Below are positions 1,474 to 26,495 of a stretch of DNA of 26,495 bases, piece by piece. A program made the position numbers and the translations under genes. The notes under the pieces are model-generated. The model was not told where the DNA came from, made no database searches, and saw nothing but the letters and a program-made list of their open reading frames with translations. Within the stretch, counting starts at the first letter, position 1. Every line of letters begins with the position of its first letter. Origin of the DNA: Calditrichaceae bacterium (GTDB lineage Bacteria; Calditrichota; Calditrichia; Calditrichales; JBFXGD01); NCBI GenBank assembly GCA_050173015.1, contig JBFXLE010000038.1:1-26495 (forward strand). The letters are read 5' to 3'.

Positions 1474-1513
1474 ACAAAATCTTCCTGTTTATATGTCTTG
1501 TCATTTATATAAT

Positions 1514-6569: not shown

Positions 6570-6812
6570 TTATGAATGAAATGTTTAACATCAAATTCAT
6601 AATCTTTATGTTCTAAAGCTATTTTTCTCAGGTGAAAAAAATATCTTTCTATTTACTAAAGAGAGGAAATCAGGATGTTTTTGTAATTCTTTTTAGAAAT
6701 ATTCATAAAATGCCACAAGAATTTTACAGTTTCCGGCCGGGTAACCCGGCTGACATTTTTAGAATTAGATTTATCGACACCAAAAAGAAAACTATCCTAC
6801 ACTCACGATACG

Positions 6813-7066: not shown

Positions 7067-7352
7067 CAGCGATCTGGCTCCCGGCTAATGGCTATCGGCT
7101 TTCCGGACGAAAGTTTGATCTTATAACCCGTCAATTTTGATTCCTAAATCTCTCACAAAGACACAAAGCTATTGCGTTTTTTCTTTGCCGACGGCGGGAA
7201 CACAGCTATTAGCTATCAGCTGTTAGCTATCGGCTTTTCGATCGGAAATTCTTCCCTAAAAATCGACAGACTTCTAAACTGCTCATTGGCGTAACCGGGA
7301 AAAAACTCCACATTTTTGGCTCTTTCTTAGCCGACGGCCGATAGCTGACGAC
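7067..7352. repeat. Diverged A+B copy of the modular repeat, immediately downstream of the CARF-RelE stop codon
   Basis: Contains TCTCTCACAAAGACACAAAG (core A), CTTCCCTAAAAATCGAC..CTAAACTGCTCATTGG (core B) and the GCTATTAGCTATC arms. Confidence 0.88.
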
Positions 7353-8448: not shown

Positions 8449-8460
8449 ACACCTTCCTTT

Positions 8461-10638
8461 TTAGTGATTGCCGTTTCCATAAAAATCACGCGCTTTTGGT
8501 AAGATATAACGATTACGCCAGGCGCTTCTACCGGGTTCTTTTTCAATGTCCATATACTGCTTTTGGCCCGCTTTTTTATCTTTTCTGCTGTAATCAAAAA
8601 TCGAATAAAGATCTTTGATATGAGGTAACTGATCAAAATTTGTTCCCAAAAAACCGGTGACAAAATTTTTAAATTCAGTTATAAAAAAGGACGTGTCCGG
8701 TACATCCTTACTAACAACAGGCCAGATGGACTGGTAGCGTTTTCCTCCATCCTGCCGGACATCCAATTTTTGAATATCGATTTTAGAGCTTCCCATACCA
8801 AGAGGTTTTCCCATACCAATTTTCCAGCGACTTTCGGGATTCATTTCAATCGCCCAAAGTATGGCTCCCAATTCCTCGGCAGAGACGCTTTTTAGTGTGA
8901 TGGAAAATTTAAAGGTATGACCCGGAGCAAGAGGCTTTGCGGAACTTAAAATATTTTTATTCTGCGTCTCTTTATCAAATATATTATTCCCGCTTTGGTG
9001 CCAGTAGAATTTTCTGCCCGCGATTCTGCTCTGGTTTGGATCACTAAAATAGTCTTTTAAGGGATTACCGGCTTTTTGATTCAGATACAACTGATATGAA
9101 GAGGGTTTCGGCGAATTTAAGGGCCTGAGCGCGCGGGGATTATCCGAGCAATAAGCAGGATCTGCCTGAACCAGAGCGCCGTCTTTCATCTTGCCCGCAT
9201 AACGCCCGATACCGACCGATACTTTTCCCGCGAGCCCAATACTGTCTTTTCCGGGCATATTGAAATTTTCCGTGCCAAACAATTTTTGACAAAATTCTAT
9301 TTTAGATGCATCCTTACGGCTTTCTCCCTTAAATGCCGGCGGAACATACTGTTTAAGTGAATATTTGTATGGAATCCTGAACATCTGCGACCTGCCAAAG
9401 GCATATACATCCCTATTTTGCGCACCATTTTTATTGAGATAGAATACCGGAATACCATTATCAGGGAATTTTAGATTTTCACCAAACATGGCCGTTTTAA
9501 AGTCTGTCGCGTCTTTTTCATAGGCGGCAACAAATTCTTTACTCACACGAAGCCATCTGTCCTGATTGCGTTCTTCATCATAAAAAACGGTTTCATGCTG
9601 TTTGCTGTTCATCGGACCCGAAAGGACAAGCCGGCCTTTATGAGTTCCATTTCCCGCACCCTGCACAAGATTAAATCTTAATCGTCTGTGACCTAATTCG
9701 ATTTCACCCTGAATTACATCACTAAAGCTGATATTACTGTTATTCTTATCATTGAAATGATTCACATCATCTCCGGACCGAATCATTCCCGACGCGTCAC
9801 GGTTCCTAAAATGTAATCCATTAATATCCTGTTTTCTGATTTTTGCCCAACTTGCGGGTTGTATATAATAACCATCCGATCTTTTATGAAGAAATCCGGC
9901 ATTTACCAGATAGTTCCCCTGATTGATATTTAAAAAAAGCTGAGCATAATTATTTTTTGGGCCCATATCCCGGACAAAGAAGAAGCGGTTTTCAACCCGA
10001 TCATAGCCGTTGCCCGTCGCGGCTTCAACAATACTACGCAGCGCTCCTTTTAACGATGTGGCGGGGATGCAGGGTTCGTTTTCCGAAAAAAGATGAAAAA
10101 ACAATCCTGACGGCTTCTCTCCAATGCCGCCATCCATAATGAATAACGGCTCCAGATTGGTTAATCCGCATTCAATCGTGCCCGAATAGGTTTTATTATC
10201 TCCCGTATCCAGACTAACCATCACCGGCTTATCGGGCAAGTTCACAAAATTATAGGGCGAGAAAGCGCCGGAACTCGCGTTTCCCTGAGCGCGGCTTGGA
10301 TCTTTGGGTGGTTCAAATGTTGTAGTATCCTGAATTAATTGAATATCGCCAAAGTCATCCTGATCAATATTTATGGCTTCTTCATTATTTCCATTTTTAT
10401 CGCCGGTGGGATTATTTTCATTCAGTTCCGCGGGTTTTTCCGTGGTTATTTTTCTGATATCAGAATATTCTTTTAAATAGTAAACGGGTATTTCGGACTG
10501 GCCCCCGATTTCTGATATAATTTCAGGAAATCTGGATTTTAACTGTCTTGACCTAATGCCTAATCTGTTTCCATTCTTATCCAGAACAAAAAAGGCATTA
10601 TTTTCCTGGCAAATTTTTCCGCTTTTCCAATCAGCCAT
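8461..10638 (-). CDS. cas7: Type III-D large Cas7 with insertion (TIGR03986-like RAMP)
   Basis: PYNFV, IPATSLKGALRS, GRKFYWH, ELGAILW and KIGMGKPLGMGS glycine loop. Start moved from 10710 to ATG 10638 (GAGGAG RBS, directly after the csx19 stop). Confidence 0.9.
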   Translation of the reverse strand: MADWKSGKICQENNAFFVLDKNGNRLGIRSRQLKSRFPEIISEIGGQSEIPVYYLKEYSDIRKITTEKPAELNENNPTGDKNGNNEEAINIDQDDFGDIQLIQDTTTFEPPKDPSRAQGNASSGAFSPYNFVNLPDKPVMVSLDTGDNKTYSGTIECGLTNLEPLFIMDGGIGEKPSGLFFHLFSENEPCIPATSLKGALRSIVEAATGNGYDRVENRFFFVRDMGPKNNYAQLFLNINQGNYLVNAGFLHKRSDGYYIQPASWAKIRKQDINGLHFRNRDASGMIRSGDDVNHFNDKNNSNISFSDVIQGEIELGHRRLRFNLVQGAGNGTHKGRLVLSGPMNSKQHETVFYDEERNQDRWLRVSKEFVAAYEKDATDFKTAMFGENLKFPDNGIPVFYLNKNGAQNRDVYAFGRSQMFRIPYKYSLKQYVPPAFKGESRKDASKIEFCQKLFGTENFNMPGKDSIGLAGKVSVGIGRYAGKMKDGALVQADPAYCSDNPRALRPLNSPKPSSYQLYLNQKAGNPLKDYFSDPNQSRIAGRKFYWHQSGNNIFDKETQNKNILSSAKPLAPGHTFKFSITLKSVSAEELGAILWAIEMNPESRWKIGMGKPLGMGSSKIDIQKLDVRQDGGKRYQSIWPVVSKDVPDTSFFITEFKNFVTGFLGTNFDQLPHIKDLYSIFDYSRKDKKAGQKQYMDIEKEPGRSAWRNRYILPKARDFYGNGNH

Positions 10639-10639
10639 A

Positions 10640-11164
10640 TCAATTCTCCTCTCCCAAACCGGTGAATCTTTCCGCGACGATACGGGCCAGCCCGTCTTCG
10701 TCATAATCAATATATTGACGCACTTTCAAAACCGGGGCGCGATCACCGCCCGTGTCGGGTATCCGGTACGGACTGATCTGAAATTCGCCCATCAATCTGA
10801 CATCTTTCTCTGTTACCTTTTTATCTCCACCCGCCAACAGCCACTGTGTATCTATATAATTGTCTTTACCCAAATCGCCGTCTGCTATTTCCATCCATTC
10901 CACGGATTCGCCGTTTACCACCAGCCTCACTTCCCGGGTTTCATCAAAAATCCGCCCGCTGAGCCAGTTTTCGGGATTTGTCAGTTTATCCGCCGGCTCT
11001 TCCAGCGCCCGCATCTGCCCCTGGCTGATCTCGATCCAGAACGGTTTTTCCGTTGATTCTATGATTCCATAAGCTTTGTTAAAGGTATTCAGGAGCTTCT
11101 TACCCGCTTCGGCAACAGATAATTTCTGCTTTTCACCGGCTATTTTATTCATAATTTTTTTCAT
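10640..11164 (-). CDS. csx19: Type III-D subunit Csx19 (TIGR03984-like)
   Basis: GRIFDETREVR and C-terminal VRQYIDYDEDG.ARIVAERFTGL; canonical position between the double Cas7 and the insertion Cas7. Confidence 0.88.
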   Translation of the reverse strand: MKKIMNKIAGEKQKLSVAEAGKKLLNTFNKAYGIIESTEKPFWIEISQGQMRALEEPADKLTNPENWLSGRIFDETREVRLVVNGESVEWMEIADGDLGKDNYIDTQWLLAGGDKKVTEKDVRLMGEFQISPYRIPDTGGDRAPVLKVRQYIDYDEDGLARIVAERFTGLGEEN

Positions 11165-11166
11165 AA

Positions 11167-12621
11167 TTACGCGCCCTTCTTCATTTGCTCGTTAAACGAC
11201 ACGGATAATTGGTCCAGCCAGCGGACGGCATCCCCCGTGAATGTATCCGGTAAATCGACCGCGCCGGCGCTGCCTGTGAGCGCTTCCAGCTGCACTCTTC
11301 CGCCCATCAGTTTTTTTAGGGTCACCTTACCCATCCCTCTCATTTTCCCAAATCCAAGGCGTATTTCACCCGTGAACAGATCCTTTAGCAAATGACCAAG
11401 CAGACCGAGCTGCCATAATTCGGGATTTTGCACCTGAATTGCCAGTTCAAATTCCGCGTCCTGATTCCAGATCGCTTCCATACTGTACAATGCCCCGTCC
11501 TTTGCCCCGCCGGTCAGCGGATCAATGGCCACATGATTGGTCACTTTTGTCATATTATTGGTGTCTTTAAAATAGGCGTCTTCAAAGAGAAATGCCCCCT
11601 GCCCATCATCCGTCGATCCAAAGCAGAGACTAACTTCTTTTGGTTCGGCTCCTTCCTTGATCCGGTCTTCCAGATACTGTCCGAATTTTTTAAGATCGAT
11701 GGCTCCGTCACTCATATATTTTTTATACCAGAGCGGATCAAAGGCTTTTTTGTTTCGGCAAAGGTTGATAATTCGTTCCGTCTGAGCGCGAAATGCTCCT
11801 TTAATGCTGCTGCCCGGGATGACAAAACTTTCCTTTCCATCCTGATCCATTTCTTTACGGCAGACCATATCGGGCGCGTCACCGTCATAAGCGGATTCGT
11901 CCACTACGCCATCCTTAATCATAAAGGGGCCGTCAATACCGCATAGAAGCCTGAAATTCAGGAATGTTTTGTTTGATTTAACATCGGGAAATCCGGAGTA
12001 ATCTACCGCCTTTGCCCTGTCATTCACCAGGAATTCAAGGTACGAATCAAACTCCTCCGCTTTGGATAAATCCCAGATATAAACTTTTTCTTCCGTCAGC
12101 GTAAACCGTCCCATTCCCCGGGATCCGGACGCGCCGAGGATAATTTCACTGTTTTTGAACCCTGTAATCCAGGCTTTAACCATTCCTTTTATCTGATTGA
12201 GGTCAATTTCTTCGTCCAGATCAATTTCAAGTAAAAAATCGAAGGTGGAACCGGCTTCGATAATTTCTTCGTCAAATTTGAGAGACGGAGCCGCAGTGCC
12301 TGTTTCACGCATTATTACCAGATGGTCGCGAATGGATCTTGCCGAGACGGAGTGAATTTCGGCATCTTCCACAAATACGCGGGAAGCCCATCCGTCGTCC
12401 CCATTTTGATAGCCGAATAACTGAGTTATGATTTTTTCATCTTTATATAAGTTTTGTGCATAAGCGCGCAGTGCGCCGGCAAGGCTTGTTCCGGGAATGT
12501 AAAAATTTCCCGAACCGTTTCTGGCCAATGGCTGATCGGTATAGAAATCATCCCCGACCGCGCCCGTGTGAAAAGCGGTCCTGTTCTTCAGTTTTCCGCG
12601 CAAAATCAATTTTTTAGCCAT
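11167..12621 (-). CDS. cas7: Tandem Cas7-Cas7 (Csm3-like x2) RAMP
   Basis: Two RAMP units: IPGTSLAGALR...LGASGSRGMG and IPGSSIKGAFR...LGFGKMRGMG. Each has an Asp at the Csm3 catalytic-loop position (FYTDQP, DAPDMV). Confidence 0.9.
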   Translation of the reverse strand: MAKKLILRGKLKNRTAFHTGAVGDDFYTDQPLARNGSGNFYIPGTSLAGALRAYAQNLYKDEKIITQLFGYQNGDDGWASRVFVEDAEIHSVSARSIRDHLVIMRETGTAAPSLKFDEEIIEAGSTFDFLLEIDLDEEIDLNQIKGMVKAWITGFKNSEIILGASGSRGMGRFTLTEEKVYIWDLSKAEEFDSYLEFLVNDRAKAVDYSGFPDVKSNKTFLNFRLLCGIDGPFMIKDGVVDESAYDGDAPDMVCRKEMDQDGKESFVIPGSSIKGAFRAQTERIINLCRNKKAFDPLWYKKYMSDGAIDLKKFGQYLEDRIKEGAEPKEVSLCFGSTDDGQGAFLFEDAYFKDTNNMTKVTNHVAIDPLTGGAKDGALYSMEAIWNQDAEFELAIQVQNPELWQLGLLGHLLKDLFTGEIRLGFGKMRGMGKVTLKKLMGGRVQLEALTGSAGAVDLPDTFTGDAVRWLDQLSVSFNEQMKKGA

Positions 12622-14230
12622 TGTTCTTCCTCCATTTGATGATCAGACCGCAAAATGTGGTGATAAACAGGATGACCGCCTTAAGATGAAATCGGGAAGT
12701 GTGATAGTATTGGGGCAGCCGATCCAATTCTAAAAATTCATAAAACTTTGTCCGGTCACTGATCACTTCTGTAAAAAACCGCATCAAATCTACCTTTAAA
12801 CCAGGTATCTCAATCTTAGCGTTCCACTGACCCTCTTTGTGTGCTTTTTTATCCCGTTTATTGTTCATATAGCTTTGTATCTCGCTCACACCGGTTGCAT
12901 TCAGCGCTTTGTTGCGCAACTCCTGAAGCTGTGTGTTACGCGGAAACTTTTCAAACGCGGCTTTTAGCTCTTTATCTCTTTTCGCGACAATTTCACGCAC
13001 TTTTTTTAGGATAATGACCGCCGCCTGTTTTTGAAATACGGCATCGGCCATATTTTCCGGAAGCCCTTCTATTTCCCACCAGTTTTTTACCGAGGCAGAT
13101 TCCGGATCCGGAACACTCACACCCGGAATATTGATTTCATTGCTGCCGTTACGCAGATGAAACAGGGAATTGTCAATGGCAATTCTTCCGTATCCCTCGT
13201 TGCGGCGTTCACCCAATCCATGTTGAAGCAGATACTGAATCGCCTCGTTCTTTCGCGCCCCCGTTATCCGCAGATGAAACACACTTCCCATCCTCACCGC
13301 CGGAACCATTGTCCGGAACTGTCCCCAATATCCGTTAAAACCGGATATCGTTTGAGATTTCTGATAATCATGAGTATCAGCCGCCTCAGCCACTTCAATA
13401 TTTTCAAATCCGGCTTGGTTTAAATATCCCGCTACTGCTTCGGCGGTAATCAACGATGAAGGTAAGCCGTTGGAATCTCTTAGAATGGCGTCACTTTCGA
13501 GAACCAGCCTTAAATCTGTTTTTTCGGGTATATTGTTTATTTTAAATTCTTCCGGATCCGATAAGGTCAGCACCGCCGATCCATATTCTGCGGATAATGA
13601 ACGCCCAATTTTAATCTCTCTTCTGCCACCAAAAAATTGATAAAAATGGCCGGCGTCTTCTTTATCGGCAAAACGTATTTCACCAAAGAATGTCTGACCC
13701 GCCGAAAGCGCTTCATAAACAAATACACCCCCCGTTTTGGTATCGGGACGCTGTGTATCGGGATTGACAGAGTTATGTGTAAAGGTTTCTTTATGAACCG
13801 GCACCCGGAACGGAATTTGATTAACCATTCTGAACCAGCCCGGTTTTAACGGTTTAAATATCATTTTTTCCGGCAGCGTGTCATTGTCCCGGTACATCTC
13901 ATACAGTTTCGCCGCTCCGGAATCTTCATCATCTTTCAAGGTTGGCAGATCCTTTTCACCCTTCGGATAATAGTAGCCCTGCGGGATAATCTCCGCCTGG
14001 TGTTCCGATCCGGCAATCGCGTTTCCGAACATGATTCTTTCGGTAGCTACTAAATCCTTGATAGTGATAAATCTTTCTTCTTCCTTTTTACGATCCAGCA
14101 TGCCGGCGGTTATTCCAAGCAGCACATTTCCGGGTATAAAATCAAGAGATCTGCGCCGGTTGGATTCTCCGGAATAATCCGAAATAACCGCGGGTCTTTC
14201 AAGATATATCTGATAATTTATCCTATACAT
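12614..14230 (-). CDS. csx10: Csx10 (Cas5-group RAMP) with probable C-terminal Cas11 small-subunit domain
   Basis: SLDFIPGNVLLG, IGRSLSAEYG, GLGERRNEGYG. The helical C-terminal ~140 aa (PRNTQLQELR...W...) resemble Cas11. Start moved from 14254 to ATG 14230 (GGAGG RBS, 8-nt overlap with the cas7 stop). Confidence 0.82.
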   Translation of the reverse strand: MYRINYQIYLERPAVISDYSGESNRRRSLDFIPGNVLLGITAGMLDRKKEEERFITIKDLVATERIMFGNAIAGSEHQAEIIPQGYYYPKGEKDLPTLKDDEDSGAAKLYEMYRDNDTLPEKMIFKPLKPGWFRMVNQIPFRVPVHKETFTHNSVNPDTQRPDTKTGGVFVYEALSAGQTFFGEIRFADKEDAGHFYQFFGGRREIKIGRSLSAEYGSAVLTLSDPEEFKINNIPEKTDLRLVLESDAILRDSNGLPSSLITAEAVAGYLNQAGFENIEVAEAADTHDYQKSQTISGFNGYWGQFRTMVPAVRMGSVFHLRITGARKNEAIQYLLQHGLGERRNEGYGRIAIDNSLFHLRNGSNEINIPGVSVPDPESASVKNWWEIEGLPENMADAVFQKQAAVIILKKVREIVAKRDKELKAAFEKFPRNTQLQELRNKALNATGVSEIQSYMNNKRDKKAHKEGQWNAKIEIPGLKVDLMRFFTEVISDRTKFYEFLELDRLPQYYHTSRFHLKAVILFITTFCGLIIKWRKNNG

Positions 14231-14876
14231 TATTTCCGGCCCTCCATTTTTCAAGCATCTCAGCGCGAGACCCGTCCCGCGCCAGTGTCATTTCCACCCT
14301 TCCTTTACCGCGCCGCCTGGTCCCCCCGATACGCTGTGTATGGAGAAGAAGCAGGCGCAGCAGATTCAATTCATCTTTTTCAAATTCACTGCCGTCGTGA
14401 CGGTAAATTTTTGCGTCAAAGGTCATATCCTTCCGCCCAAGCTCTATAAATCCAAGCTGCTGATTTTTTGCTTTGTGATTTTCATCCAGAGAAATCCGCG
14501 GGCTGACAAAACTGATCTCATTCAGCCAGATATTTCGGATATCCTCGGGCGCGTGTTGAAGCGAGGTGTTCTTATACGCGTCCCAGATACCATCTTCAAC
14601 ACGCCATTTGCCTGTCTGGGAATGCGTATTTTTGTCCCGGAGTTTATGGGTTCCCCAAATGACCGATGGTCTAAGGTGGCTGATCCCCTTCAGATGTTCC
14701 AGTTTCCATAATTTTTCATGCGTGTCCCTCAACACGCCGCGTATTGAACGCCCCGGAATAAACGGGAAACCGTTATTATCTCTTAACAGCATATTATCGG
14801 AGACACCGGGTAAGCCGATTCCTGTGCCGATATGCCAGTCACTGATAAACTTGAGTGTTATATCGTATGTTTTCAT
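14223..14876 (-). CDS. cas7: Cas7 (Csm3-group RAMP)
   Basis: SDWHIGTG...SD..LLRD..GFPFIPGRSIRGVLR and IGGTRRRGKG glycine loop. Confidence 0.92.
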   Translation of the reverse strand: MKTYDITLKFISDWHIGTGIGLPGVSDNMLLRDNNGFPFIPGRSIRGVLRDTHEKLWKLEHLKGISHLRPSVIWGTHKLRDKNTHSQTGKWRVEDGIWDAYKNTSLQHAPEDIRNIWLNEISFVSPRISLDENHKAKNQQLGFIELGRKDMTFDAKIYRHDGSEFEKDELNLLRLLLLHTQRIGGTRRRGKGRVEMTLARDGSRAEMLEKWRAGNNV

Positions 14877-16495
14877 TTGGACCCCGTTCCGTTTTCGTTG
14901 ACAAATTCAAGCGTCTCGATCAAATCGAAAATCGCCGTGCTATATGGTTCTGATGATCTAAATAAGGTTGGAGTGTCGTGGTAGTTGGTGAGAATGGATT
15001 CAAACTTCTTTGACTTCTTCATGTTAATCAGATTGATTTGCAGCTCCTGTTCACCCATCTCATAACCTTCTTTAGCTGAATTCAGTAGCGCTTTTAAACG
15101 GGTGCGCGGATAATCTTCTGTGTTTTTCAATTTTACAACGTCTTTAATCAATTGATCAAAGGACCTGTTTCCCGTATTATTGCCGATAACCCGGTAGGGT
15201 TTTTGCGTCAGCCACAGTTTTTTCCCGCCGCCGGTATAACTGTATTTGCGCTTTCTCATCTCCCAGATCAGATCCACATCCGTATCGGTTGAAACATGCC
15301 AGTCAATCCAGGCTTCTTCCTTATCTTTGTGCGCCGATTTCGCGGAAGTGATCAGCGATTCCGCCATCATATACGCCTGGTCAAAGGGGTAATGACTATG
15401 AACAATCGCCACACCCGCCGATGCCGTCAGACCATTCGCCGTGAATGATTCGGAAAATTGTTTGCTGACCTCATGAAAAGCTTCCTGATATACTTTACAG
15501 CATTCCAGCGCGATAACACCCGGGACTACCGCCGTAAAATCATCCCCCCCGATAATGATGGGACGAATCGGTAAGGTCGTTCTACCCTTCGCAGTTCCTT
15601 CCTTCACTGTGTTCTTTTGTAATATCCCGGTGTCTCCATTGGTCCATTGCTCATAGTTTGCCTCGACCCACTGCAGGACCTTTTCAAACACCAAATCGCT
15701 GGTCCTGCTGATATCCCCTGAAAATTGCCGCACTTTTTCAATATAATGTCTCGGAGATGGTGAATCCCCGAGCAGACTGACAATCTTTTTTCCCATCTGA
15801 TTGCCGTCGGCATGGATAATCGCTATATAATCCTTTCCCGATTTTTGACCCAGTTCATCCATATCCTTTGGAAAAGTACACAATTTACCGTTTTCACCTT
15901 TTAGGGTAATTTTGTTCATTTCATTCAGAAAACTGTCTTCGGCATATTCCCGTTTTATCAGTGACTGCGAAGACAAGCGTTCCTGATCTTTGCCGTATGA
16001 TATATGACCCGCGGCGGGCAGCCCGGTAGAATGACATCTGGCGACAAAAGGCGATGCCAAATCTCCCAAATTTGCCTGATGTCGTGCTTTTTTTCGCGCC
16101 AGTTTTGCTTCAGCCGTGTTGATGATGTTTTTAAAGTTTAAATTTTCCGACCAGTCAAATTCATGATGAATAACCTCAGCTTCCAACCCCGGCGCGTCGG
16201 TCAACAATCTTTTTGTCCAGCGTTTGATAACTGTTTTTGCCGTTTCCAAATCTCTGAACAGTATTTTCGCGTTCCCGCCGCCGGCGTAAATCACTTCGAA
16301 ATCGGCGCCGGTCTCAATGGCCGGCTGGTTTTTAATGACCTCGGTCGGATGTTCTGCGCGGATTCCCAGGCTTTCGAAAAGCCATTGACCCGTAGCCAGC
16401 TTGACTATTTCAGAAGCGCCGACAATTTCTCTCAGTCTGTTGCTTCCAAATATATACTGCTGGATTTGCAGTGTGTCGATCAATGTTAAAATCAT
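14873..16495 (-). CDS. cas10: Cas10, type III-D form (no HD domain, intact cyclase palm)
   Basis: Starts directly with IDTLQIQQYIF.SNRLREIVGAS; YAGGGN, IIHADGNQMG, RPIIIGGDD, SAGVAIV..HYPF; 540 aa. Confidence 0.96.
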   Translation of the reverse strand: MILTLIDTLQIQQYIFGSNRLREIVGASEIVKLATGQWLFESLGIRAEHPTEVIKNQPAIETGADFEVIYAGGGNAKILFRDLETAKTVIKRWTKRLLTDAPGLEAEVIHHEFDWSENLNFKNIINTAEAKLARKKARHQANLGDLASPFVARCHSTGLPAAGHISYGKDQERLSSQSLIKREYAEDSFLNEMNKITLKGENGKLCTFPKDMDELGQKSGKDYIAIIHADGNQMGKKIVSLLGDSPSPRHYIEKVRQFSGDISRTSDLVFEKVLQWVEANYEQWTNGDTGILQKNTVKEGTAKGRTTLPIRPIIIGGDDFTAVVPGVIALECCKVYQEAFHEVSKQFSESFTANGLTASAGVAIVHSHYPFDQAYMMAESLITSAKSAHKDKEEAWIDWHVSTDTDVDLIWEMRKRKYSYTGGGKKLWLTQKPYRVIGNNTGNRSFDQLIKDVVKLKNTEDYPRTRLKALLNSAKEGYEMGEQELQINLINMKKSKKFESILTNYHDTPTLFRSSEPYSTAIFDLIETLEFVNENGTGSK

Positions 16496-17050: not shown

Positions 17051-17545
17051 TTAATTTATGGATATAATTTCAATCATTTGCTTTTTTCTCCCCATTTGAA
17101 ATTCTACAATTTCTCCGGCCTGACTATTTATAATCGCCTGAGAAAGCGGCGCCTGAGATGACACAGTCATGATATTCAGATCTTTGAGATCCATCCCCCC
17201 GGCTTGGGTAATCAATAAAACATTTTCTTCTTTTCCGCCATCCTTCCATTTCAAACGAACCAGACTGCCTAAACGGACACGGTCATTTGAATCCGGAAAT
17301 GACATTTCCTTCAGTTTTTGATAGATCTGCCTTAATTCCATAGTTTTTCGCGCATAAGCGTCCGCCTCATATCCTGTTTCAATTTTATGGGTGTCATATC
17401 TGCTTTGATTCCGCCCCTCTGATTCATTGCTTCGGCGACACGCGTCTTCAAATGATTTCTCATACAATTCTATTCTGTTTTGTATTTCTTTCAGCAGTTC
17501 TTTTTTGATTTCCTTTTTACATACCGTCATGAGAATCCCTTTCAA
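17051..17545 (-). CDS. GreA/GreB-family (transcription elongation factor-like) protein
   Basis: N-terminal coiled coil with SRYDTHKIE tip; C-terminal VRLGSLVRL...VSSQAPLSQAI..SQAGEIVEF typical of the GreA/B C-domain. ATG at 17530 may be the real start. Confidence 0.8.
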   Translation of the reverse strand: MKGILMTVCKKEIKKELLKEIQNRIELYEKSFEDACRRSNESEGRNQSRYDTHKIETGYEADAYARKTMELRQIYQKLKEMSFPDSNDRVRLGSLVRLKWKDGGKEENVLLITQAGGMDLKDLNIMTVSSQAPLSQAIINSQAGEIVEFQMGRKKQMIEIISIN

Positions 17546-17547
17546 GG

Positions 17548-18117
17548 CTAATTTTTAAAATTTAACAAATGTAGGATTTTTTCGGCTACTTCATCCGGGG
17601 TGAGATTTTCATTTCCCGTGGTAAACCGGACCATATCCCGCGTATGCCGCATCTGGTAGGCAATAGCCGACAACATATCGGGATCTGATTCAAAGCTCTC
17701 TTTTTGCGATGAAGCCCTGTTCTCAATCCGGCTGATCGCGAGCGGAACGGGTACATCAAGAAAAATCGTTTTTGCCGCCGGATACAATCCCGCTGTTTCA
17801 ATAATTCTTGACAGCGGTTTCCTTAGTATGACCTCGTGATATATCCGTAACGAATGAACATAGCGGTCCAGAACCAGTCCCTTCCTGGTGGTGGTCTTTA
17901 GCGCCTCATCTACTGTGTCTTTTACGGCTCCGAGGTAAAAAAGAAACCGTGAAAACATATTTGTTTCCGGTTCATCAAAAAAGGCTCTCACTTTTTGATA
18001 CTTTTCAGAAGGGGTTTTTATATAATCAAAACCCAACCGTTCAGCCAATAATCTGGCGGTGGTGGTTTTACCGCTTCCGTCTATGCCTTCTATGGCGAGA
18101 AGTAATTTTTCAGTCAA
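17548..18117 (-). CDS. Nucleoside monophosphate kinase, thymidylate kinase / CMPK2-like
   Basis: P-loop IEGIDGSGKTT, KTP...RAFFDEP...RFLFY, LDRYVHS, IFLDVP...RI..R. Confidence 0.88.
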   Translation of the reverse strand: MTEKLLLAIEGIDGSGKTTTARLLAERLGFDYIKTPSEKYQKVRAFFDEPETNMFSRFLFYLGAVKDTVDEALKTTTRKGLVLDRYVHSLRIYHEVILRKPLSRIIETAGLYPAAKTIFLDVPVPLAISRIENRASSQKESFESDPDMLSAIAYQMRHTRDMVRFTTGNENLTPDEVAEKILHLLNFKN

Positions 18118-19064
18118 TTGAGTTTTCCTCCGTCTCTTAACCCGTGAACAAGTAATTTTGTGTCAAACACACTTTTATTCGGAATAAAATTATCTCTGCG
18201 CACTCCGCATGGCTGGATACCTTCCCCGGATATACGGATTGACGCTCTGCACCCCTCGTTGCATTTTGATCTTAAGGCACAGGCATGATTCGCGCATAAA
18301 TTCGCTTCGCGGCTGATTTTGATCTTGAGCTGGCCTAAACCTACCGGGATCATATAGTAAACATATTCTTCATTTTTTTTCTCCGAAAGCCGGTACCCCT
18401 GTTTTTCAAGAAAATCGATCAGTTGGGACATTGGCTTGAACATGCCGGCAGGACCACCCTCAAGAAGATCAAAAAACTTCCAGGTGAGGCCTTTTCTTAC
18501 ACATGTAAAATCGATTATATCATCAATTTCATCGAAATTGAGTCCTGAATAGATGCAATTTACTCCGGTTCTTAATCCGCAGGTCAGAGCATATTCCACC
18601 GAATTAACAACGTGCTCAAACAATTGTTTACCGTTGGAAACACCGCTGTAATAAAGATATCGCTCCGGTTTCAGTGTATTCAGACTGATATTGACTTCAC
18701 TCAGCCCCGCGTTTACGAGACGATCATATAATCTGACCGACCCTGTTGTTCCATTGGTCGTTAATCCTATATTTTTAAAACCTGCCCGCCGGATCCCCTT
18801 TATCAAATGTGTCAGTGTGTCTGTCGGCATCAAGGTGGGTTCACCTGCCGAAGAAATCTGTACGGGAGTATGTGATTCATAATACGCGCTCAGGATGTTA
18901 ACCTGTTCAAGAATTACATTTACCTGAGAAAACGGATTATCATAGACGCAATTCACCACGGGCATCATATCGTTATGACACCAAACGCAATTCAGATTGC
19001 ATCGCGCGCCGTGTTCGTTCATTTTGAATTTGGGATAAAGCTCTATTCGCAGTTTCGCGTTCAT
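18114..19064 (-). CDS. Radical SAM protein, MoaA-like, with Cys-rich C-terminus
   Basis: CNLNCVWCH (CxxxCxxC), GEPTL, LTTNG, AGL..VNISLNTL..ERY; C-terminal CANHAC...CNEGC..IRI...IQPC. Start moved from TTG 19091 to ATG 19064 (GAGGAG RBS). Confidence 0.88.
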   Translation of the reverse strand: MNAKLRIELYPKFKMNEHGARCNLNCVWCHNDMMPVVNCVYDNPFSQVNVILEQVNILSAYYESHTPVQISSAGEPTLMPTDTLTHLIKGIRRAGFKNIGLTTNGTTGSVRLYDRLVNAGLSEVNISLNTLKPERYLYYSGVSNGKQLFEHVVNSVEYALTCGLRTGVNCIYSGLNFDEIDDIIDFTCVRKGLTWKFFDLLEGGPAGMFKPMSQLIDFLEKQGYRLSEKKNEEYVYYMIPVGLGQLKIKISREANLCANHACALRSKCNEGCRASIRISGEGIQPCGVRRDNFIPNKSVFDTKLLVHGLRDGGKLN

Positions 19065-19121
19065 TGATTTACTCCTCATTTTATCACTCAATTAATAAAG
19101 AGGAGAAATCAGCGGGCTTTT

Positions 19122-19523
19122 TTAAATTTTTTCAGATATTTTTTGAATTTTTTCGAATATATTTTTAATGACGGCTAAATCGGATAAAAGAGGTTTTTCG
19201 TATTCTTTCTTTACCCGGTGACGTGTACGGGAAAGACCGGCTAAATCCGTTTCGCTGATATTGATGTCCGGATAAAGATGACGAAATATTTTTCTGAAAG
19301 TCGCGTGCGGCTGATCGCTCAAAGCCAGGCCATATGTACTTAGTTTTAGCTCCAGAAGCCTGAAAACAGCGTCATAATAGGCTAAAAACCTGACCCGTTC
19401 ATCCGGATGTTCAAATTTTTGCCTTAATTGTTTCAAACTGCGGGTATTGCTTGCCCTCGCCTGCAGCGGGTCACATTTCTTTAATAACCCTTTTTGCTCA
19501 AAATTTTGTAAAAAGTTTATCAT
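19122..19523 (-). CDS. Small helical protein, HEPN-like
   Basis: Pattern RFLAYYDAVF.LLE..L...G......H..F...L..TRH....Y resembles standalone HEPN proteins; canonical Rx4-6H is not intact. Confidence 0.5.
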   Translation of the reverse strand: MINFLQNFEQKGLLKKCDPLQARASNTRSLKQLRQKFEHPDERVRFLAYYDAVFRLLELKLSTYGLALSDQPHATFRKIFRHLYPDINISETDLAGLSRTRHRVKKEYEKPLLSDLAVIKNIFEKIQKISEKI

Positions 19524-21311
19524 TTAAAAATGAACCGTTTCCTTTAATTTTCCCCAATTTCCCGATTTTATGTCCTTCACATCGGGCAGAATCAAATTGT
19601 ATCCCGGCATCGCTGTTTGGCACTGTCTGACAATTTCTGACATTTCGTAATCAGTTAGTATAAACATGCTGTTTCCGCCGGACCGCTCAACGGCCTCCAG
19701 TTTAACAAGAATCATGGATATCATTGGAGAACCCGTTCCGAAAATCCACTTTCTGGCCAACTTGATCAGCTTATCTCTCTTTTGCGCGTTTTTATCGTGT
19801 AAGCTGGCGCCAAAAGCCGCAATTATGCCGCTGTGAACACGAAACTGCCGCGGATTTTCCAATCGTCCGGAGTTTTCCAGCTTTGTTAAAATCTCTCTCA
19901 AAGTCTCGGTTGAACCGGAAAAATAGGCCGTATAACATTTATAATAGTCATTAAAGAAGATTTGCTCCGTTTGTTCATCCCTTGTCTCATGGACAGCCTT
20001 CTTTAGCAAAAGATGGGCCTGCGCGTAATTACCCGCGATCGTCTCATTGTGTGCCATATAGCAGTACAACCGGGCCATGGCATCATATTCTCCACTCTTT
20101 TCCGCTATTTTTTCCGATGCTTCATAACAGGCGCGGGCTTCATCATTTCTGTTCCACCTGGCGTACAATTGCCCGAGACTGTTCCGGGTAGTAATATATT
20201 TATAATCGGGATAATGATGCCGTTCCAGCATATGCAGAGATTGTGTGAAGATATTTTCCGCCGCCTGGTAAGCGAACTGATCGGTAAGCCAGACGCCGTA
20301 TTTATTAAAAACTTCATAAATATCAACAGCGGGATCATGGTTATGTCCAAGATCCCGGACAATATCATAAGCCTCTCTGAAATATTCCCCGGCTTTGTCG
20401 CCGCGTCCCTCATGGGTATATTGCAACCCGAGTTCACCTAAAACATACGCGTATCTGGATCGTACAGAGGGTTTTGTGGAATCCCGGTACTGTTCGCGAA
20501 ACCGGTCCAGTATATCTTTTGCCGTTCGATTATCCTGAATCTGCAAAAAATATTTCAATTCCAGAAGTTCTCTGTCAATGTTCATTCTGATGGATTTCAC
20601 TTTTCGTTCAAAAAATTGCTCCCCCCAAAGCAACTTTACCACTTCGTCCAGATTCGCACAAAAAACATGCCGGCTATCATCCTGTTTATTATTATCAATC
20701 TGTGGATCAGCGCATAGAAAAATACGTTTGATAAACGGATGATTTTTTCGGACTGCATCCGTTTTTTCAACAATATGATCGACCGCCGAGAGTTTGCCAT
20801 GATGATCAACACGGGCGGAAAACGCGGCATCTCCCGGAATCGGCTGTTTTAACTGTTTTGAAATTAATATGACCGCGGCGGCAAGACCGATGGACGCTCC
20901 GCTGAAATGAAGCACATGTTGCCGGAATCCTTTTATCCTCGCCGGTTTCAGATAATAACGGGGTAATTCAAACGCCCATCCCTGTCGGAAAAAATATCGC
21001 GCCGCCTCCGCGGCATTTTCCAACGCTGATATAAAATTCTGATCATCGCTGATATCATTCTGCGGATTTCTATCCAGTGTGACGGGAATACACTGACCAT
21101 TTTGGCCGTCAAAAAACAGGGCATTCACGATACCGATCTCCGGTCCAGGGATCGTCATATTTCGTTTTTCAACTTCATTTAACAATTCTAAATATCTATA
21201 ATCCGACGCCCGCAGTGACTTCCCCCGCAAACGCGTTTTTAGATACCGTGTCAGTTCAAACCAGTTTTCTTCACGAATCAGCTGATTAATTTTTTTGTCG
21301 GAAATAGGCAT
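19524..21311 (-). CDS. Lon-family (S16) protease domain fused to C-terminal TPR repeats
   Basis: SGASIGLAAAVILIS...AFSARVD..GKLSAVD.IVEKT: Ser140 and Lys183 are 43 residues apart, as in the Lon Ser-Lys dyad. At least four TPR-like units (YVLGELGLQY..EG..DKA..YF.EA; NSLGQLY......DEA...Y..S). No AAA+ or SAVED domain seen. Confidence 0.85.
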   Translation of the reverse strand: MPISDKKINQLIREENWFELTRYLKTRLRGKSLRASDYRYLELLNEVEKRNMTIPGPEIGIVNALFFDGQNGQCIPVTLDRNPQNDISDDQNFISALENAAEAARYFFRQGWAFELPRYYLKPARIKGFRQHVLHFSGASIGLAAAVILISKQLKQPIPGDAAFSARVDHHGKLSAVDHIVEKTDAVRKNHPFIKRIFLCADPQIDNNKQDDSRHVFCANLDEVVKLLWGEQFFERKVKSIRMNIDRELLELKYFLQIQDNRTAKDILDRFREQYRDSTKPSVRSRYAYVLGELGLQYTHEGRGDKAGEYFREAYDIVRDLGHNHDPAVDIYEVFNKYGVWLTDQFAYQAAENIFTQSLHMLERHHYPDYKYITTRNSLGQLYARWNRNDEARACYEASEKIAEKSGEYDAMARLYCYMAHNETIAGNYAQAHLLLKKAVHETRDEQTEQIFFNDYYKCYTAYFSGSTETLREILTKLENSGRLENPRQFRVHSGIIAAFGASLHDKNAQKRDKLIKLARKWIFGTGSPMISMILVKLEAVERSGGNSMFILTDYEMSEIVRQCQTAMPGYNLILPDVKDIKSGNWGKLKETVHF

Positions 21312-22479
21312 GGTGCAGTCTGATTTTTTTTGTAACGGAATAGAGTTCGTAATTCAATTCCACCGTCAGAATTTTATTGATAAACGCGGATATGCCCGGT
21401 AAGAATGCCTGACCGATATGATTATCTTCTGTGCGTATACTTTTTTCCCAGAGCACACCATCTTCATCGAGAATCCTTGAATCAACTATGGCGCCCGCCT
21501 TTGTGGTAACAACTTGTAAAGCCAGCGCCTCATTATTTACAAGTAGCTCAATAAAAAATGCCGGATCATCATGAAGAATAAATGCCCGGATTCCTGACAG
21601 CCGTTGCTCCAAAATATCCGGCTTTTCAACCGCGGATGCCGCGAGCCTGAAAACAGGCACCGATTCCGTTTCAATTTCTTTTTCAAGTTTTCCGAGATCA
21701 ACGATGTGACTTATATCCGTAGTCATGACATCCGGAAGTTCTTCTGATACCGCGATCATCTGTTCAACCGGCTCACGCATATAAGCGGTGATTTTATTTT
21801 CTTCTGTTTCAAAATAATACCGCCGGTCTTCAGCACCGGCAATTTTTGTAAATCCCGGGTTGGCTCTTCCTTCCGGAAGCCCGGCCATATACGACCATAC
21901 GTCCCGTATCAACTCGTCATAATGCTCGGGGATTGTCCCGAAATACCGATCAAGCTGATCGGTGAAAATCGGCTGCATGGATCCGATCCGGATAAGATAG
22001 GACATACCCAGGGTACTATCTTTTTCATCAATCATGACATCTGTATCGCATGCCTGATCGACACGGAAACTGATCGGCGCCGCCAGCACATCCGGCAAAG
22101 TTTCATTGTATGAATCATCATCATTGGTCATCACCATCACCAATCGGCGTTCCTGACGCGGCTGGGGCCAATTCAAAGGAAGACTGGTTTCAAAAATCTG
22201 TCCGAAGCCGTAATCGGAAGGTGGCGGAAGCTCTTTGCGTTTCCGAATATTATCGGTGATCTTCCTGATCCTGTCCGCGAGTCCGTATTTTTCGGCCCAT
22301 GCCTTATAATCACCCTTCGATGGCGGGTCACCGCCGAGTTTTTGTTCCCACAGCCCTGCCAGATAGGCTTCGCTTCTGGGATCTTTGACAATTTCCTGAG
22401 CCATTTTGCTCATGGTCTCTTCATCATATTCGGCGTTAAAAAAACGCCTTAGTTCTTCATCAGAATATTTTCTGTTCAT
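21286..22479 (-). CDS. CalpT-like putative anti-sigma factor / protease substrate
   Basis: Anti-sigma-like N-terminal helices; central MazF-like region (GQIF...LVMVM...VLAAPIS...D.D....STLG...DRR..F..EE); acidic linker with RLAAS (278-282); beta-rich C-terminal ~110 aa. Overlaps both neighbouring genes. Confidence 0.6.
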   Translation of the reverse strand: MNRKYSDEELRRFFNAEYDEETMSKMAQEIVKDPRSEAYLAGLWEQKLGGDPPSKGDYKAWAEKYGLADRIRKITDNIRKRKELPPPSDYGFGQIFETSLPLNWPQPRQERRLVMVMTNDDDSYNETLPDVLAAPISFRVDQACDTDVMIDEKDSTLGMSYLIRIGSMQPIFTDQLDRYFGTIPEHYDELIRDVWSYMAGLPEGRANPGFTKIAGAEDRRYYFETEENKITAYMREPVEQMIAVSEELPDVMTTDISHIVDLGKLEKEIETESVPVFRLAASAVEKPDILEQRLSGIRAFILHDDPAFFIELLVNNEALALQVVTTKAGAIVDSRILDEDGVLWEKSIRTEDNHIGQAFLPGISAFINKILTVELNYELYSVTKKIRLHHAYFRQKN

Positions 22480-23549
22480 GATTCGATTCCTGTTTCTGAT
22501 AATGATGCCAATGGATAATCTTCGGTGATTTTTTTAAAAAACAACCTCATGATATATCCGGGATCGCTTGTTTCGATATGCTCTTGCCAGGCTTGCCCAA
22601 CCATCTTAAAAACAGCATCCGCGTTATATTCCACATGATTCCTGATAGTTGACGCTTTGAGATCTTTACCGGCGAGACTTTCCGCTATTTTATAGACATC
22701 CGTTTTTAAATGCTCATCTTTTGGTATGCTGATATAAGCGTGGGCGTAATATACGAGAGAACGTTTGTATTTTGGCTTAGTGGCGCTTATCACCTCCTCA
22801 TAAAAAACGTCGAATCCCGAATTTTCTTCATCTACAGGATATTCAAGGTGCTCATGATCCCTATCAACCCTTTCCGCGAATATTAGACGGTCTTCTCCCT
22901 GATGGAAAAAACCACTGTCATCTAGAAGCTTTAAAAAATGATTGATTCGAAGGGAAGCGATCACCGTTTCAAATGCCTCATCTATCCAGTCCAATAAATA
23001 TTCGCTGGTTAAATAATGCCACTTACTTCGAGGGAGAACGCCGACCACCCCCAACAGCCTATCCTGGTACAGTTCAGGAATTTCATTCCAGGAGCTCATG
23101 TAATAGTTCCGCGAATCGGCTTTAACCATGGGATCGATACAACGTTCTTTTATGAGGCCTTGCCAGTAATGATACTTTTCGGAATATTTGTCAAACAACT
23201 GGGAAAACCGTGTCTTAAATTCCGACCATTTACTTATCTTAAATTCATTATAAACCATGACATACACGTATGATTCGACATCTTCAATTTCAATCTGTAA
23301 ATCCGCGTTGCTGAATAAATTTTCACGTTCCATTAATTCAAATATAAAGGAACCCAGTTCATTCGTAAGCTCTTCACGCGTAACCGGATTATTCTGATTC
23401 TGATGCCGGTAATGACTGAATTTCGGATGACGTATGATCATCACATATTTTGATTTTATAAGATATGAAGCGATAACGCGGAGACTCTCATATATGGAAT
23501 CAAATGTTCCGGTTTGTATGAATTGAGCATAAGACTGTTTAAAATCCAT
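22476..23549 (-). CDS. Divergent sigma-70/ECF-like factor (CalpS-like position)
   Basis: Region-2-like helices (IYESLRVIA...REELTNEL...ESYVYVMVYN) and region-4-like HTH (KIAESLAG...ASTIRNHV). Start placed at ATG 23549 rather than 23615. Confidence 0.55.
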   Translation of the reverse strand: MDFKQSYAQFIQTGTFDSIYESLRVIASYLIKSKYVMIIRHPKFSHYRHQNQNNPVTREELTNELGSFIFELMERENLFSNADLQIEIEDVESYVYVMVYNEFKISKWSEFKTRFSQLFDKYSEKYHYWQGLIKERCIDPMVKADSRNYYMSSWNEIPELYQDRLLGVVGVLPRSKWHYLTSEYLLDWIDEAFETVIASLRINHFLKLLDDSGFFHQGEDRLIFAERVDRDHEHLEYPVDEENSGFDVFYEEVISATKPKYKRSLVYYAHAYISIPKDEHLKTDVYKIAESLAGKDLKASTIRNHVEYNADAVFKMVGQAWQEHIETSDPGYIMRLFFKKITEDYPLASLSETGIES

Positions 23550-24033
23550 GGACCCGCCGTCCTTTCTTAGCCATAAACTCACGGTATTTTTGCTGAAAAC
23601 GTTCAAAAATCGCATCAGGAATTTTTGTACCGGGTTGTGGTTTCATTTTCTGTAGATCTTCTGCCGGATATGGGTAGGAATGATCCACTAAAAACCAGCC
23701 GGATCTTTTGAGCTCAGGGATTTCATTGACCTTGATATAAATCGCCCAGCGCTTTTTATGATAATATTGATTTTCCGAGTTTTCATGAGTACCCGGCATC
23801 ATCCATGCTTTTAAATTATGCTTTTTTAAAACCGCCATCGGCCGGCAAGTATTATGAATTTCTTTTTCACCCCTTAGGCGGCCGAAGTTCACATATTTAT
23901 CAACGAGCCAGGCGATATGTCCTTCAGAGATGAACCAATCGTAGAATTGATAATGGATTTCTCCTTTATCCAGTAATTCCTGTTGGATATGATTGAAGGT
24001 TTTTTTGTGCTGAAGATTCTTTTTGGGAGTCAT
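23539..24033 (-). CDS. Hypothetical protein, possible PemK/MazF-like fold
   Basis: GGAGG RBS; G.IAW...RPMAVL......MMPGT matches the PemK RPxxV(L)...vPxT pattern; overlaps the sigma-like gene by 11 nt. Confidence 0.5.
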   Translation of the reverse strand: MTPKKNLQHKKTFNHIQQELLDKGEIHYQFYDWFISEGHIAWLVDKYVNFGRLRGEKEIHNTCRPMAVLKKHNLKAWMMPGTHENSENQYYHKKRWAIYIKVNEIPELKRSGWFLVDHSYPYPAEDLQKMKPQPGTKIPDAIFERFQQKYREFMAKKGRRVHGF

Positions 24034-25557: not shown

Positions 25558-26495
25558 CTCGATCCCCTCCCGCCTGAGGCGGGCAGGCTTCATAACGGGG
25601 GGGAACACAGCTATTAGCTATCGGCTATTGGCTATTGGCTATTGGCTCTCCAAACTGAAATTTTATCCTATAACCCTGCAATCTTGATTCTAAAATCTCT
25701 CACAAAGACACAAAGCTTTAGCGATTCCTCCTGGCTGACGGCGGGAACACAGCTATTAGCTATCGGCTGTTAGCTATCGGCTTTTCGATCGGAAATTCTT
25801 CCCTAAAAATCGACAGAACTCTAAACTGCTCATTGGCCTGGCCGGGAAAAAGCTCAACATTTCCCGCTCTTTCTTAGCCGACGGCTGACAGCTGATAGCC
25901 GACAGCCATCTGGCTCTCGGCTGTTGGCTATTGGCTTTTCTAGCCGGAAAATCTTCCCTAAAAATCGAAAGACTTCTAAACTGCTCATTGGCCTGACCGG
26001 GAAAAAGCTCAACATTTCCCGCTCTTTCTTTGCCGACGGCCGATAGCTGATAGCCGACAGCCGCTCCCGTCTCAATCCCCTATGAATAACGGGGGGAAAC
26101 ACAGCCATTAGCTCTCGGCTGTTGGCTATTGGCTTTTCTAGCCGGAAAATCTTCCCTAAAAATCGAAAGACTTCTAAACTGCTCATTGGCCTGACCGGGA
26201 AAAAGCTCAACATTTCCCGCTCTTTCTTTGCCGACGGCCGATAGCTGATAGCCGACAGCGATCTGGCTCCCGGCTATTGGCTCTCCAAACTGAAATTTTA
26301 TCCTATAACCCTGCAATCTTGATTCTAAAATCTCTCACAAAGACACAAAGCTCTCGCGATTCTTCCTAGCCGACGGCCGATAGCTGATAGCCGACAGCCG
26401 CTCCCGTCTCAATCCCCTATGAATAACGGGGGGAAACACAGCCATTAGCTCTCGGCTGTTGGCTATTGGCTTTTCTAGCCGGAAAATCTTCCCTA
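25558..26495. repeat. Second modular A/B repeat field with embedded CRISPR-repeat derivatives, running off the window
   Basis: Palindrome-bearing repeat variant at 25558-25603, then A, B, B, a 28-nt exact CRISPR-repeat fragment at 26069-26096, B, A, another fragment at 26406-26433, then B. Confidence 0.9.

Follow-up and report, generated by a model that had tools for sequence, protein, structure and literature searches.

The closest described counterpart of the locus discussed here is the type III CRISPR-linked CalpL/CalpT/CalpS system, made up of a SAVED-Lon protease that binds cyclic tetra-adenylate, a MazF-like anti-sigma protein and a sigma factor resembling those of extracytoplasmic function; the original CalpL paper is reportedly that of Rouillon et al. 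in Nature in 2023. According to a report on this system (10.1101/2024.05.08.593097), CalpT pairs a MazF-like domain with a DUF2080 domain, the latter of which binds the N-domain of the protease; CalpL cuts CalpT in a poorly structured region, within an LAAA motif between A204 and A205, and the new LAA end of the cut protein is a degron that is needed to free CalpS. Here we analyzed a 26,495-nt stretch of DNA from a Calditrichaceae bacterium (contig JBFXLE010000038.1; the whole stretch is referred to as the window), which carries a cassette of four genes near a type III-D CRISPR system. We read the cassette as a self-contained, four-gene Calp-like proteolytic switch in which tetratricopeptide repeats (TPRs) stand in place of the SAVED sensor, and put the probability of this reading at roughly one half. 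That it adjoins the type III-D system in this genome is most readily explained by the two sharing a defence locus, rather than by any reliance of the cassette on the III-D complex or cyclic oligoadenylates.

All four cassette genes lie on the minus strand of the window and overlap or abut one another. The first encodes a 164-aa protein of probably PemK/MazF-like fold (positions 23539-24033), the second an all-helical 357-aa protein (22476-23549) whose N-terminal domain appears sigma region-2-like in a fold search, the third a 397-aa CalpT-like protein (21286-22479), and the fourth a 595-aa protein, the Lon-TPR protease (19524-21311). The initial annotation spanned 19524-23549 and described the last three as overlapping genes; its coordinates and residues proved correct against the open reading frame (ORF) listing, and a script confirmed overlaps of 4 nt between the 357- and 397-aa genes and of 26 nt between the 397- and 595-aa genes. 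The 164-aa gene, which shares 11 nt with the 357-aa gene, lies outside that span and is a fourth conserved gene of the same cassette. The 357-aa gene is contained in a longer ORF (22476-23615, minus strand), of which M23 at 23549 is the preferred start; this start is supported because the homologue from a candidate division KSB1 contig aligns from that methionine. A promoter and terminator scan found promoter-like sites at the level of shuffled sequence (21 vs. 21.7), so no operon boundaries were drawn. Directly after the Lon-TPR stop codon, with a gap of 0, begins a 133-aa ORF (19122-19523) for which Pfam, NCBIfam and PADLOC gave no family match. It was considered as a cassette member and dropped, as the ORF that occupies the corresponding place in the KSB1 locus shows no homology to it.

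On sequence grounds, the 595-aa protein is a Lon-type Ser/Lys protease fused to TPRs. Pfam located TPRs at residues 289-479 (TPR_12, E 1.8e-14; TPR_MalT, E 4.1e-10; approximately positions 19875-20447), found no CHAT match and reported no Lon domain when given the single sequence. Other Lon signals of the single sequence were weak (PDB entry 1xhk, E 0.1; NCBIfam LonC, 7.6e-4), and PADLOC matched residues 135-190 to its CARF-Lon (2.4e-5), CRISPR-Lon (2.7e-5) and SAVED-Lon models, with E-values ranging from 2.4e-5 to 7.6e-4. A family profile of six sequences matched archaeal LonB in the PDB at 8.7e-10 (1xhk, positions 116-232) and 3.3e-7 (1z0c), the CalpL chains 7qda/8b0r/8b0u at 1.7e-6 (positions 141-231 vs. 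147-232 of CalpL) and LonC at about 4e-6. The comparison with 1xhk places the Lon (S16) protease domain at residues ~116-232 (20616-20966). Residue 140 is serine (codon 20892-20894) and residue 183 is lysine (20763-20765), as verified by script; both are invariant in the alignment of six orthologues. Taken together, the profile matches, the conservation of the dyad and the TPR matches indicate a real Lon-fold Ser/Lys protease with a C-terminal half made of TPRs. The annotation had proposed exactly this arrangement from the letters alone, with S140 and K183 intact and TPRs occupying the place of SAVED, and each of these points held up.

The protease family is very rare. When residues 1-270 of Lon-TPR were used as the query of a HMMER scan of 1.84 billion representative proteins, only 40 proteins were retrieved at E ≤0.001, five of them at ≤1e-10. 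In these 40 relatives, G138, S140, G172 and K183 are each at least 90% conserved; TPR_12 and Lon_C were each recognized in 16 of the 40, and SAVED was not among the 23 Pfam families found in the set (E ≤0.001). Five orthologues (P0002-P0006, 579-590 aa) are homologous to Lon-TPR over its full length, the TPR half included. Orthologue records carry the names "tetratricopeptide repeat protein" or "hypothetical" and stem from candidate division KSB1, Caldithrix/Calditrichota and Calditrichia metagenome-assembled genomes (MAGs). Within the phylum of the window, Calditrichota, the gene was found in two of 86 genomes, namely that of the window (G000) and a Calditrichaceae MAG of the same genus (G001), a third match having been discarded as an ordinary 795-aa Lon; within KSB1 it was found in one of 167 genomes (G086, a MAG). 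Other searches added nothing to this distribution. A word-indexed homologue search with Lon-TPR returned only the protein itself, and those with the 397- and 357-aa families returned only their three known members; pattern scans with the three-sequence alignment gave no match in genome or metagenome contigs, nor did a scan of metagenomes with the pattern of P0041, and tblastn against plasmids gave no match for either Lon-TPR or the 397-aa protein. Many of the distant relatives (P0007-P0040) are likewise about 575-600 aa long and have their Lon domain at this N-terminal location. Two of the 40 contain ATPase domains of the STAND type (AAA_16, NPHP3_N), and Sel1 repeats occur in one. Sensor-fused Lon proteases may thus form a broader group.

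The 397-aa protein has the layout expected of a CalpT-like partner, namely N-terminal helices, a PemK/MazF-like domain, a linker with an LAA motif and a C-terminal beta-sandwich, although neither its full sequence nor a three-row profile matched anything in Pfam, NCBIfam, PADLOC or the PDB. When residues 85-215 were scanned alone, Pfam PemK_toxin (PF02452) was matched at E 6.3e-5 and 23.6 bits, just above the cut-off of 23.1, over profile positions 3-96 of 109. When compared by hhalign with 14 aligned PemK proteins of related genomes, residues ~93-191 (positions 21907-22203) covered nearly the whole domain with a probability of 69.7% and a score of 31.8. The maximum in 30 column shuffles was 14.4, with none of the 30 reaching 31.8; a reversed control gave 10.8, and two families without relation to it, those of the 357-aa protein and of Lon-TPR, gave 11.2-11.5. 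The MazF-like core proposed earlier is thus supported, at a borderline level. Residues 280 and 281 are both alanine, within L-A-A-S-A, and L279, A280 and A281 (21637-21645) are invariant in all three homologues while the surrounding stretch varies (the protein is 81% identical in G001 and 32-34% in KSB1). The AlphaFold2 (AF2) model has predicted local distance difference test (pLDDT) values of 24-32 around this candidate cleavage and degron motif, in keeping with the LAA linker that had been described. The model as a whole, built from the three-row alignment, is poor (pLDDT 46.6), its usable part being residues 297-390 (~21310-21591); it shows N-terminal helices and, according to DSSP, nine strands at residues 297-389. 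The best fold match of this C-terminal domain is a DUF3244 immunoglobulin-like sandwich (Z 9.0, root-mean-square deviation 2.2, 80 residues aligned), a generic fold that agrees with the beta-rich tail of the annotation within the limits of a low-confidence model. A search of the ESM Atlas with the 397- and 357-aa proteins yielded unnamed clusters only, without a usable structure match.

Complex prediction of Lon-TPR with the 397-aa protein, one of the checks that the annotation had suggested, gave a score of 0.54 (0.54, 0.00 and 0.55 in the individual runs), against 0.00 for the best of three controls, with contact agreement of at least 37% and a partner pLDDT of at least 73. Self-built alignments served as its input. 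Of 80 solved complexes, 58 attained the mark applied, as did two of 110 mismatched pairs; only seven of the 80, but both mismatches, attained it with a score of 0.60 or less. The prediction gives weak support to binding and adds little.

The 357-aa family has three members and matched nothing by sequence in Pfam, NCBIfam, PADLOC or the PDB. Its AF2 model, likewise built from a three-row alignment, is all-helical, with pLDDT values of 64-87 over residues 1-80 (48.5 overall), and is usable over residues 1-113. In a fold search, independent of Foldseek, against 48,161 PDB representative chains, the top rows were sigma region-2 domains, all aligned to residues 1-113 of the model, and at least ten of the top 20 rows named a sigma factor in the entry title, with further sigma entries lower in the list. 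The best sigma match was region 2 of sigmaE (Z 6.1, root-mean-square deviation 2.8, 86 of 106 residues aligned), followed by CnrH (5.7), SigW (5.4), ShbA (5.3), R. sphaeroides SigE (5.2), SigB and SigK (5.1 each), AlgU (4.8), SigC region 2 (4.7) and pro-sigmaK (4.5). Because these Z values fall below the caution line of the tool, they are a consistent lead and no proof, and the N-terminus of the protein can be said to resemble sigma region 2 weakly. A sub-threshold hhalign alignment of residues 51-120 with residues 38-97 of extracytoplasmic function (ECF) sigma factors has the same register as the fold match. The C-terminal residues 241-347 gave assorted winged-helix and helix-turn-helix matches at Z ~4, in a low-confidence part of the model. 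The annotation had called the protein a sigma-like helix-turn-helix protein; the fold search agrees with the sigma part of that description, while sequence profiles stay within the range of shuffled controls.

The homologue of the 164-aa protein in the KSB1 locus is 174 aa long and 26% identical (E 1e-13). Compared by hhalign with the same 14 PemK proteins, this two-sequence family aligned over residues 48-154 with a probability of 82% and a score of 36.2, against a maximum of 16.2 in 30 shuffles. Pfam PemK_toxin matched the core of the KSB1 homologue below its cut-off (E 0.0016, 19.1 bits) and did not match the copy in the window. R64-P65 and P80-G81-T82 are invariant in the pair. From sequence comparison, the 164-aa protein is probably a second PemK-like unit. 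The core of the 397-aa protein and the 164-aa family were also considered as close paralogues, an idea that was rejected when direct comparison by hhalign gave no alignment (probability 1.6%).

The cassette was also recovered on a 13.3-kb KSB1 contig (locus L010), reached through the orthologue P0003. Here four genes of 174, 371, 404 and 606 aa, corresponding to the 164-, 357-, 397- and 595-aa genes of the window, stand in the same order and orientation; the 404-aa protein is 32% identical to the 397-aa protein (E 2e-58), and the 371-aa protein is 23% identical to the 357-aa protein (E 1e-23). In G001, a 2.3-kb contig covers the initial 280 residues of the protease together with the complete homologue of the 397-aa protein and the last part of that of the 357-aa protein. 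No cas gene was found in the 10 kb upstream or the 1.5 kb downstream of the L010 cassette, which is followed by a convergent P-type ATPase gene. When the genomes G000, G001 and G086 were compared, all four matches to the RAMP family (PF03787) came from G000, and all of them lie in the window; G001 and G086 contained no homologue of the Cas10d of the window, and the 37-nt CRISPR repeat was present in 40 copies in G000 and in none in G001 or G086. The cassette thus occurs without a detectable type III system in two of its three carrier genomes, and the association of homologues with type III loci, which the annotation had set as a check, was not seen in the other two carriers. Since the four genes are kept across two phyla while their neighbours change completely, and since type III genes are undetectable in the other two carriers, the cassette has the look of an autonomous unit that becomes inserted into defence loci.

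Rather than cas genes, the region upstream of the L010 cassette (571-6722) encodes a double AAA+ ATPase (PADLOC PDC-M37B, 5e-33; DolB, 1.3e-24), a 964-aa HerA-like ATPase (2.5e-14) and a 380-aa protein without a known family. These genes are likely a separate candidate defence system.

A Calp-like switch with a TPR protein sensor is favoured because the III-D system is already equipped with a cyclase-competent Cas10 and a CARF effector and because the protease lacks any domain for sensing nucleotides; with TPRs in place of SAVED, no cyclic tetra-adenylate (cA4) sensing or ring-nuclease function is evident. According to this reading, the 397-aa protein would hold the sigma-like protein, and perhaps also the small MazF-like protein, inactive. 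Binding of a protein ligand by the TPRs, most simply a phage protein, would turn the Lon domain on, possibly by oligomerisation. Lon-TPR would then cut the linker of the 397-aa protein at or beside L279-A280-A281, and the new LAA C-terminus would serve as a degron for housekeeping unfoldase-proteases. Finally, the sigma-like protein would be freed and would bring about a change in transcription.

Several observations weigh against this reading. The sigma match is weak, with a maximal Z of 6.1 against a caution line of 8 (13 for helical folds) and a model pLDDT of 48.5; Foldseek, the check that had been proposed for this protein, found nothing in the PDB at E below 2.7. In hhalign comparisons with 19 ECF sigma factors from related genomes, the 357-aa family scored 16.8 as a whole and 15.4-17.2 in three pieces, all inside the range of the shuffles (maxima 17.6-19.5), and with its 357 aa the protein is roughly double the length of an ECF sigma factor. 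The PemK match of the 397-aa protein stands at the Pfam cut-off and is absent from the full-length Pfam scan and from both homologue regions (G001 and KSB1), and no DUF2080 match was found, residues 290-397 being without any Pfam match at E up to 10. Archaeal LonB outscores CalpL in the search with the family profile, and the L010 Lon-TPR has no PADLOC match at all, CRISPR-Lon included, so that kinship with CalpL in particular, as opposed to LonB/LonC in general, is not established. As to independence from type III systems, the context of the cassette comes from three loci only, one of them the 2.3-kb contig; in G000 the cassette sits inside a CRISPR locus; G001 is 94% complete in 320 contigs, and for G086 the completeness figure is unreported; and another contig of G086 has a Cas10-palm match (PF22335) at 28.3 bits against a cut-off of 27, from a model that also gives matches in E. 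coli.

The presence of two PemK-like units in one cassette raises a different explanation, namely a protease-controlled toxin module acting by abortive infection, in which one or both PemK/MazF-like proteins would be RNases restrained by a partner and freed when Lon-TPR destroys or clips the inhibitory part on infection, and the 357-aa protein would be an antitoxin or regulator. In the alignments with PemK, the arginine (R-P) and threonine (P-x-T) positions, which we take to be the catalytic positions of MazF, correspond to R112 and S137 in the 397-aa family and to R64 and T82 in the 164-aa family, and removal of the antitoxin by Lon is the very logic of type II toxin-antitoxin systems. We nevertheless regard the toxin explanation as unlikely, given that no MazE-like antitoxin was found, that the 357-aa protein looks more like a sigma factor in the fold search, and that the MazF-like domain of CalpT is a binding module in the published system (10.1101/2024.05.08.593097).

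The surroundings of the cassette in the window invite a comparison with Craspase. A CRISPR array with 21 copies of the 37-nt repeat (4182-5735, plus strand) is followed by a type III-D operon on the minus strand (7357-16495), which encodes a Cas10d with the GGDD motif, Csx10, Csx19, RAMPs and a CARF-RelE effector (PADLOC, 2.3e-116). From low to high coordinates, the order is array, CARF-RelE, TIGR03986 RAMP, Csx19, double Csx7-like RAMP, Csx10, small RAMP and Cas10d, and then, after a 555-nt gap, genes for a GreA-like protein, a dTMP-kinase-like protein and a radical S-adenosylmethionine (SAM) protein, the 133-aa ORF, the cassette, a DUF1232 gene and copies of a ~199-nt leader-like element. 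The last 29 nt of this element equal the start of the CRISPR repeat. Another contig of the same genome, C17, opens with the 199-nt element and continues with 19 more repeats; the 3′ end of the window probably joins this second CRISPR array. The cassette is therefore probably flanked by the III-D operon on one side and a second array on the other, which is the chief argument for a CRISPR link in this genome.

In such a setting, the TPRs could dock the Lon protease on the III-D complex, or sense its activated state, as Csx29 does on Cas7-11, so that binding of target RNA would lead to cleavage of the anti-sigma-like protein. The cassette shares its strand with the III-D operon and stands between it and leader-like repeats that apparently continue into the second array, the large RAMP of the III-D system has Cas7-11-like segments, and TPRs are the docking domain in Craspase. 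On the other hand, four genes and the 555-nt gap separate the cassette from cas10, the locus is already served by a CARF-RelE effector and a GGDD-bearing Cas10, RAMPs, a Cas10d homologue and this repeat are undetectable in G001 and G086, and cas genes are missing around the L010 cassette. We consider docking quite improbable, and the proposal of the annotation that the III-D complex switches the protease on finds no support, both other carriers being without detectable type III genes. A variant confined to G000, in which the TPRs would read the target-bound III-D complex or a protein made or released when III-D is activated, Lon-TPR would be a Lon-based equivalent of Craspase, and the freed sigma-like factor would drive the flanking viperin-like radical SAM, kinase or GreA-like genes or the arrays with their multiplied leader-like elements, has a slighter chance still. 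That the cassette is a stress-response sigma/anti-sigma module under regulated proteolysis, with no part in defence and in a defence locus by chance, is very unlikely: regulated proteolysis of anti-sigma factors is common, we know of no defence phenotype for the cassette, and three of its four proteins are not covered by any PADLOC model, but the distribution is sporadic (two of 86 and one of 167 genomes, and 40 relatives in 1.84 billion proteins) and both long loci are ringed by defence-type genes, with III-D, the viperin-like radical SAM protein and the kinase in one and the HerA-like and PDC-M37B/DolB-like AAA+ proteins in the other.

Several features of the window outside the cassette deserve mention in their own right. 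Three co-directional genes between the cassette and cas10 (17051-19091) encode a GreA C-terminal-domain protein, a dTMP-kinase-like protein (PADLOC PDC-M51B, 5.3e-21; VakA, 9.2e-11) and a MoaA/viperin-like radical SAM protein whose matches lie far below cut-offs (PADLOC pVip, 1.3e-9; NCBIfam MoaA, 3.9e-23; viperin, 1.9e-6). They may form a separate nucleotide-modifying defence module. The TIGR03986 RAMP of the III-D operon (8461-10710) is 749 aa long; besides its own model (2.8e-89) it shows partial matches to type III-E/III-I Cas7-11 models (1.2e-20 and 6.3e-7), and it has an N-terminal extension of ~150 residues without a match. Copies of the leader-like element occur both in tandem and dispersed, at 1547-4218, 7202-7348 and 25749-26495 of the window and at 1-1653 of contig C17, and multiplication of such an element is unusual. 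Among the copies upstream of the array is a gene of the 23S rRNA intervening-sequence protein family (PF05635, 8.5e-36) at 2865-3227. Elsewhere in Calditrichota, the genome G072 gave a single PADLOC CRISPR-Lon match, which was rejected as a genuine Calp locus, as it is a SAVED protein without a Lon part, beside reverse transcriptase (RT)-Cas1 and Cas2. That locus (L014, contig C139, 286-9147) encodes a 779-aa RT-Cas1 fusion, Cas2, a small Cas_APE2256-like protein and the 340-aa SAVED protein, whose match to the PADLOC CRISPR-Lon model is confined to the SAVED half, no Lon part being recognisable.

If the cassette is indeed a TPR-gated switch of the Calp type, the logic of CalpL/CalpT/CalpS, in which a sensor-fused Lon protease liberates a sigma factor by cleaving its MazF-like anti-sigma protein at an LAA degron, would be a transferable output device, coupled in the course of evolution to more than one kind of sensor. 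The TPR array would here probably read a protein rather than a cyclic nucleotide, and protease-gated transcriptional immunity would reach beyond CRISPR signalling. The cassette would also offer a compact system for finding the targets of TPR sensors during infection. Among the papers searched, none described a Lon-TPR protease accompanied by partners of this kind, the related matches all concerning SAVED-Lon, TPR-CHAT and SAVED-CHAT proteins; the supplementary tables of two surveys of type III accessory genes (PMC11229360 and PMC6546367) may list the family.

Compared with known systems, the cassette shares with MazEF/PemIK the PemK/MazF-like folds and a Lon-family protease as the controlling element, whereas it has no recognized antitoxin gene, its protease is dedicated and sensor-fused, and one of its PemK-like domains lies inside a multi-domain protein. 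TPR arrays are likely protein-ligand sensors fused to an effector in defence sensors of the Avs/STAND type. The cassette resembles these in combining a TPR array with an effector in a defence-island context, and STAND ATPase domains are found in two of the 40 Lon relatives; it differs in that Lon-TPR has no NTPase domain and in that the effector is a predicted site-specific protease acting on a dedicated partner. With Craspase (type III-E Cas7-11 with the TPR-CHAT protease Csx29, Csx30 and CASP-sigma) it has in common a TPR protease beside a type III system, a cleavable partner and a sigma-like protein. Unlike Craspase, its protease is a Lon-type Ser/Lys enzyme and not a caspase-like CHAT, the effector beside it is a multi-subunit III-D complex and not Cas7-11, no sign of docking was seen, and elsewhere it occurs without detectable type III genes.

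The closest parallel is with CalpL/CalpT/CalpS, from which the cassette differs in several respects. Lon-TPR carries TPRs and no SAVED; the CalpT-like partner is larger (397 aa), with an additional N-terminal helical region and a beta-sandwich without a DUF2080 match; the sigma-like protein, with 357 aa and a long insertion, has no significant sequence match to ECF sigma factors; and there is an extra small PemK-like gene. The consistent association with type III systems seen for CalpL does not extend to the three cassette loci, two of whose three genomes are without a detectable type III system. In contrast, the plan of the two systems is alike. Lon-TPR, like CalpL, consists of an N-domain, a Lon Ser/Lys protease and a C-terminal domain in the sensor position, and the spacing of its dyad (S140-K183) is like that of CalpL, numbered S152-K193 or S154-K195. 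The 397-aa protein, like CalpT, joins a MazF/PemK-like domain to a distinct C-terminal domain through a poorly structured linker that contains an L-A-A motif, the 357-aa protein has a domain with a weak resemblance to sigma region 2, and in both systems the genes are adjacent and overlapping.

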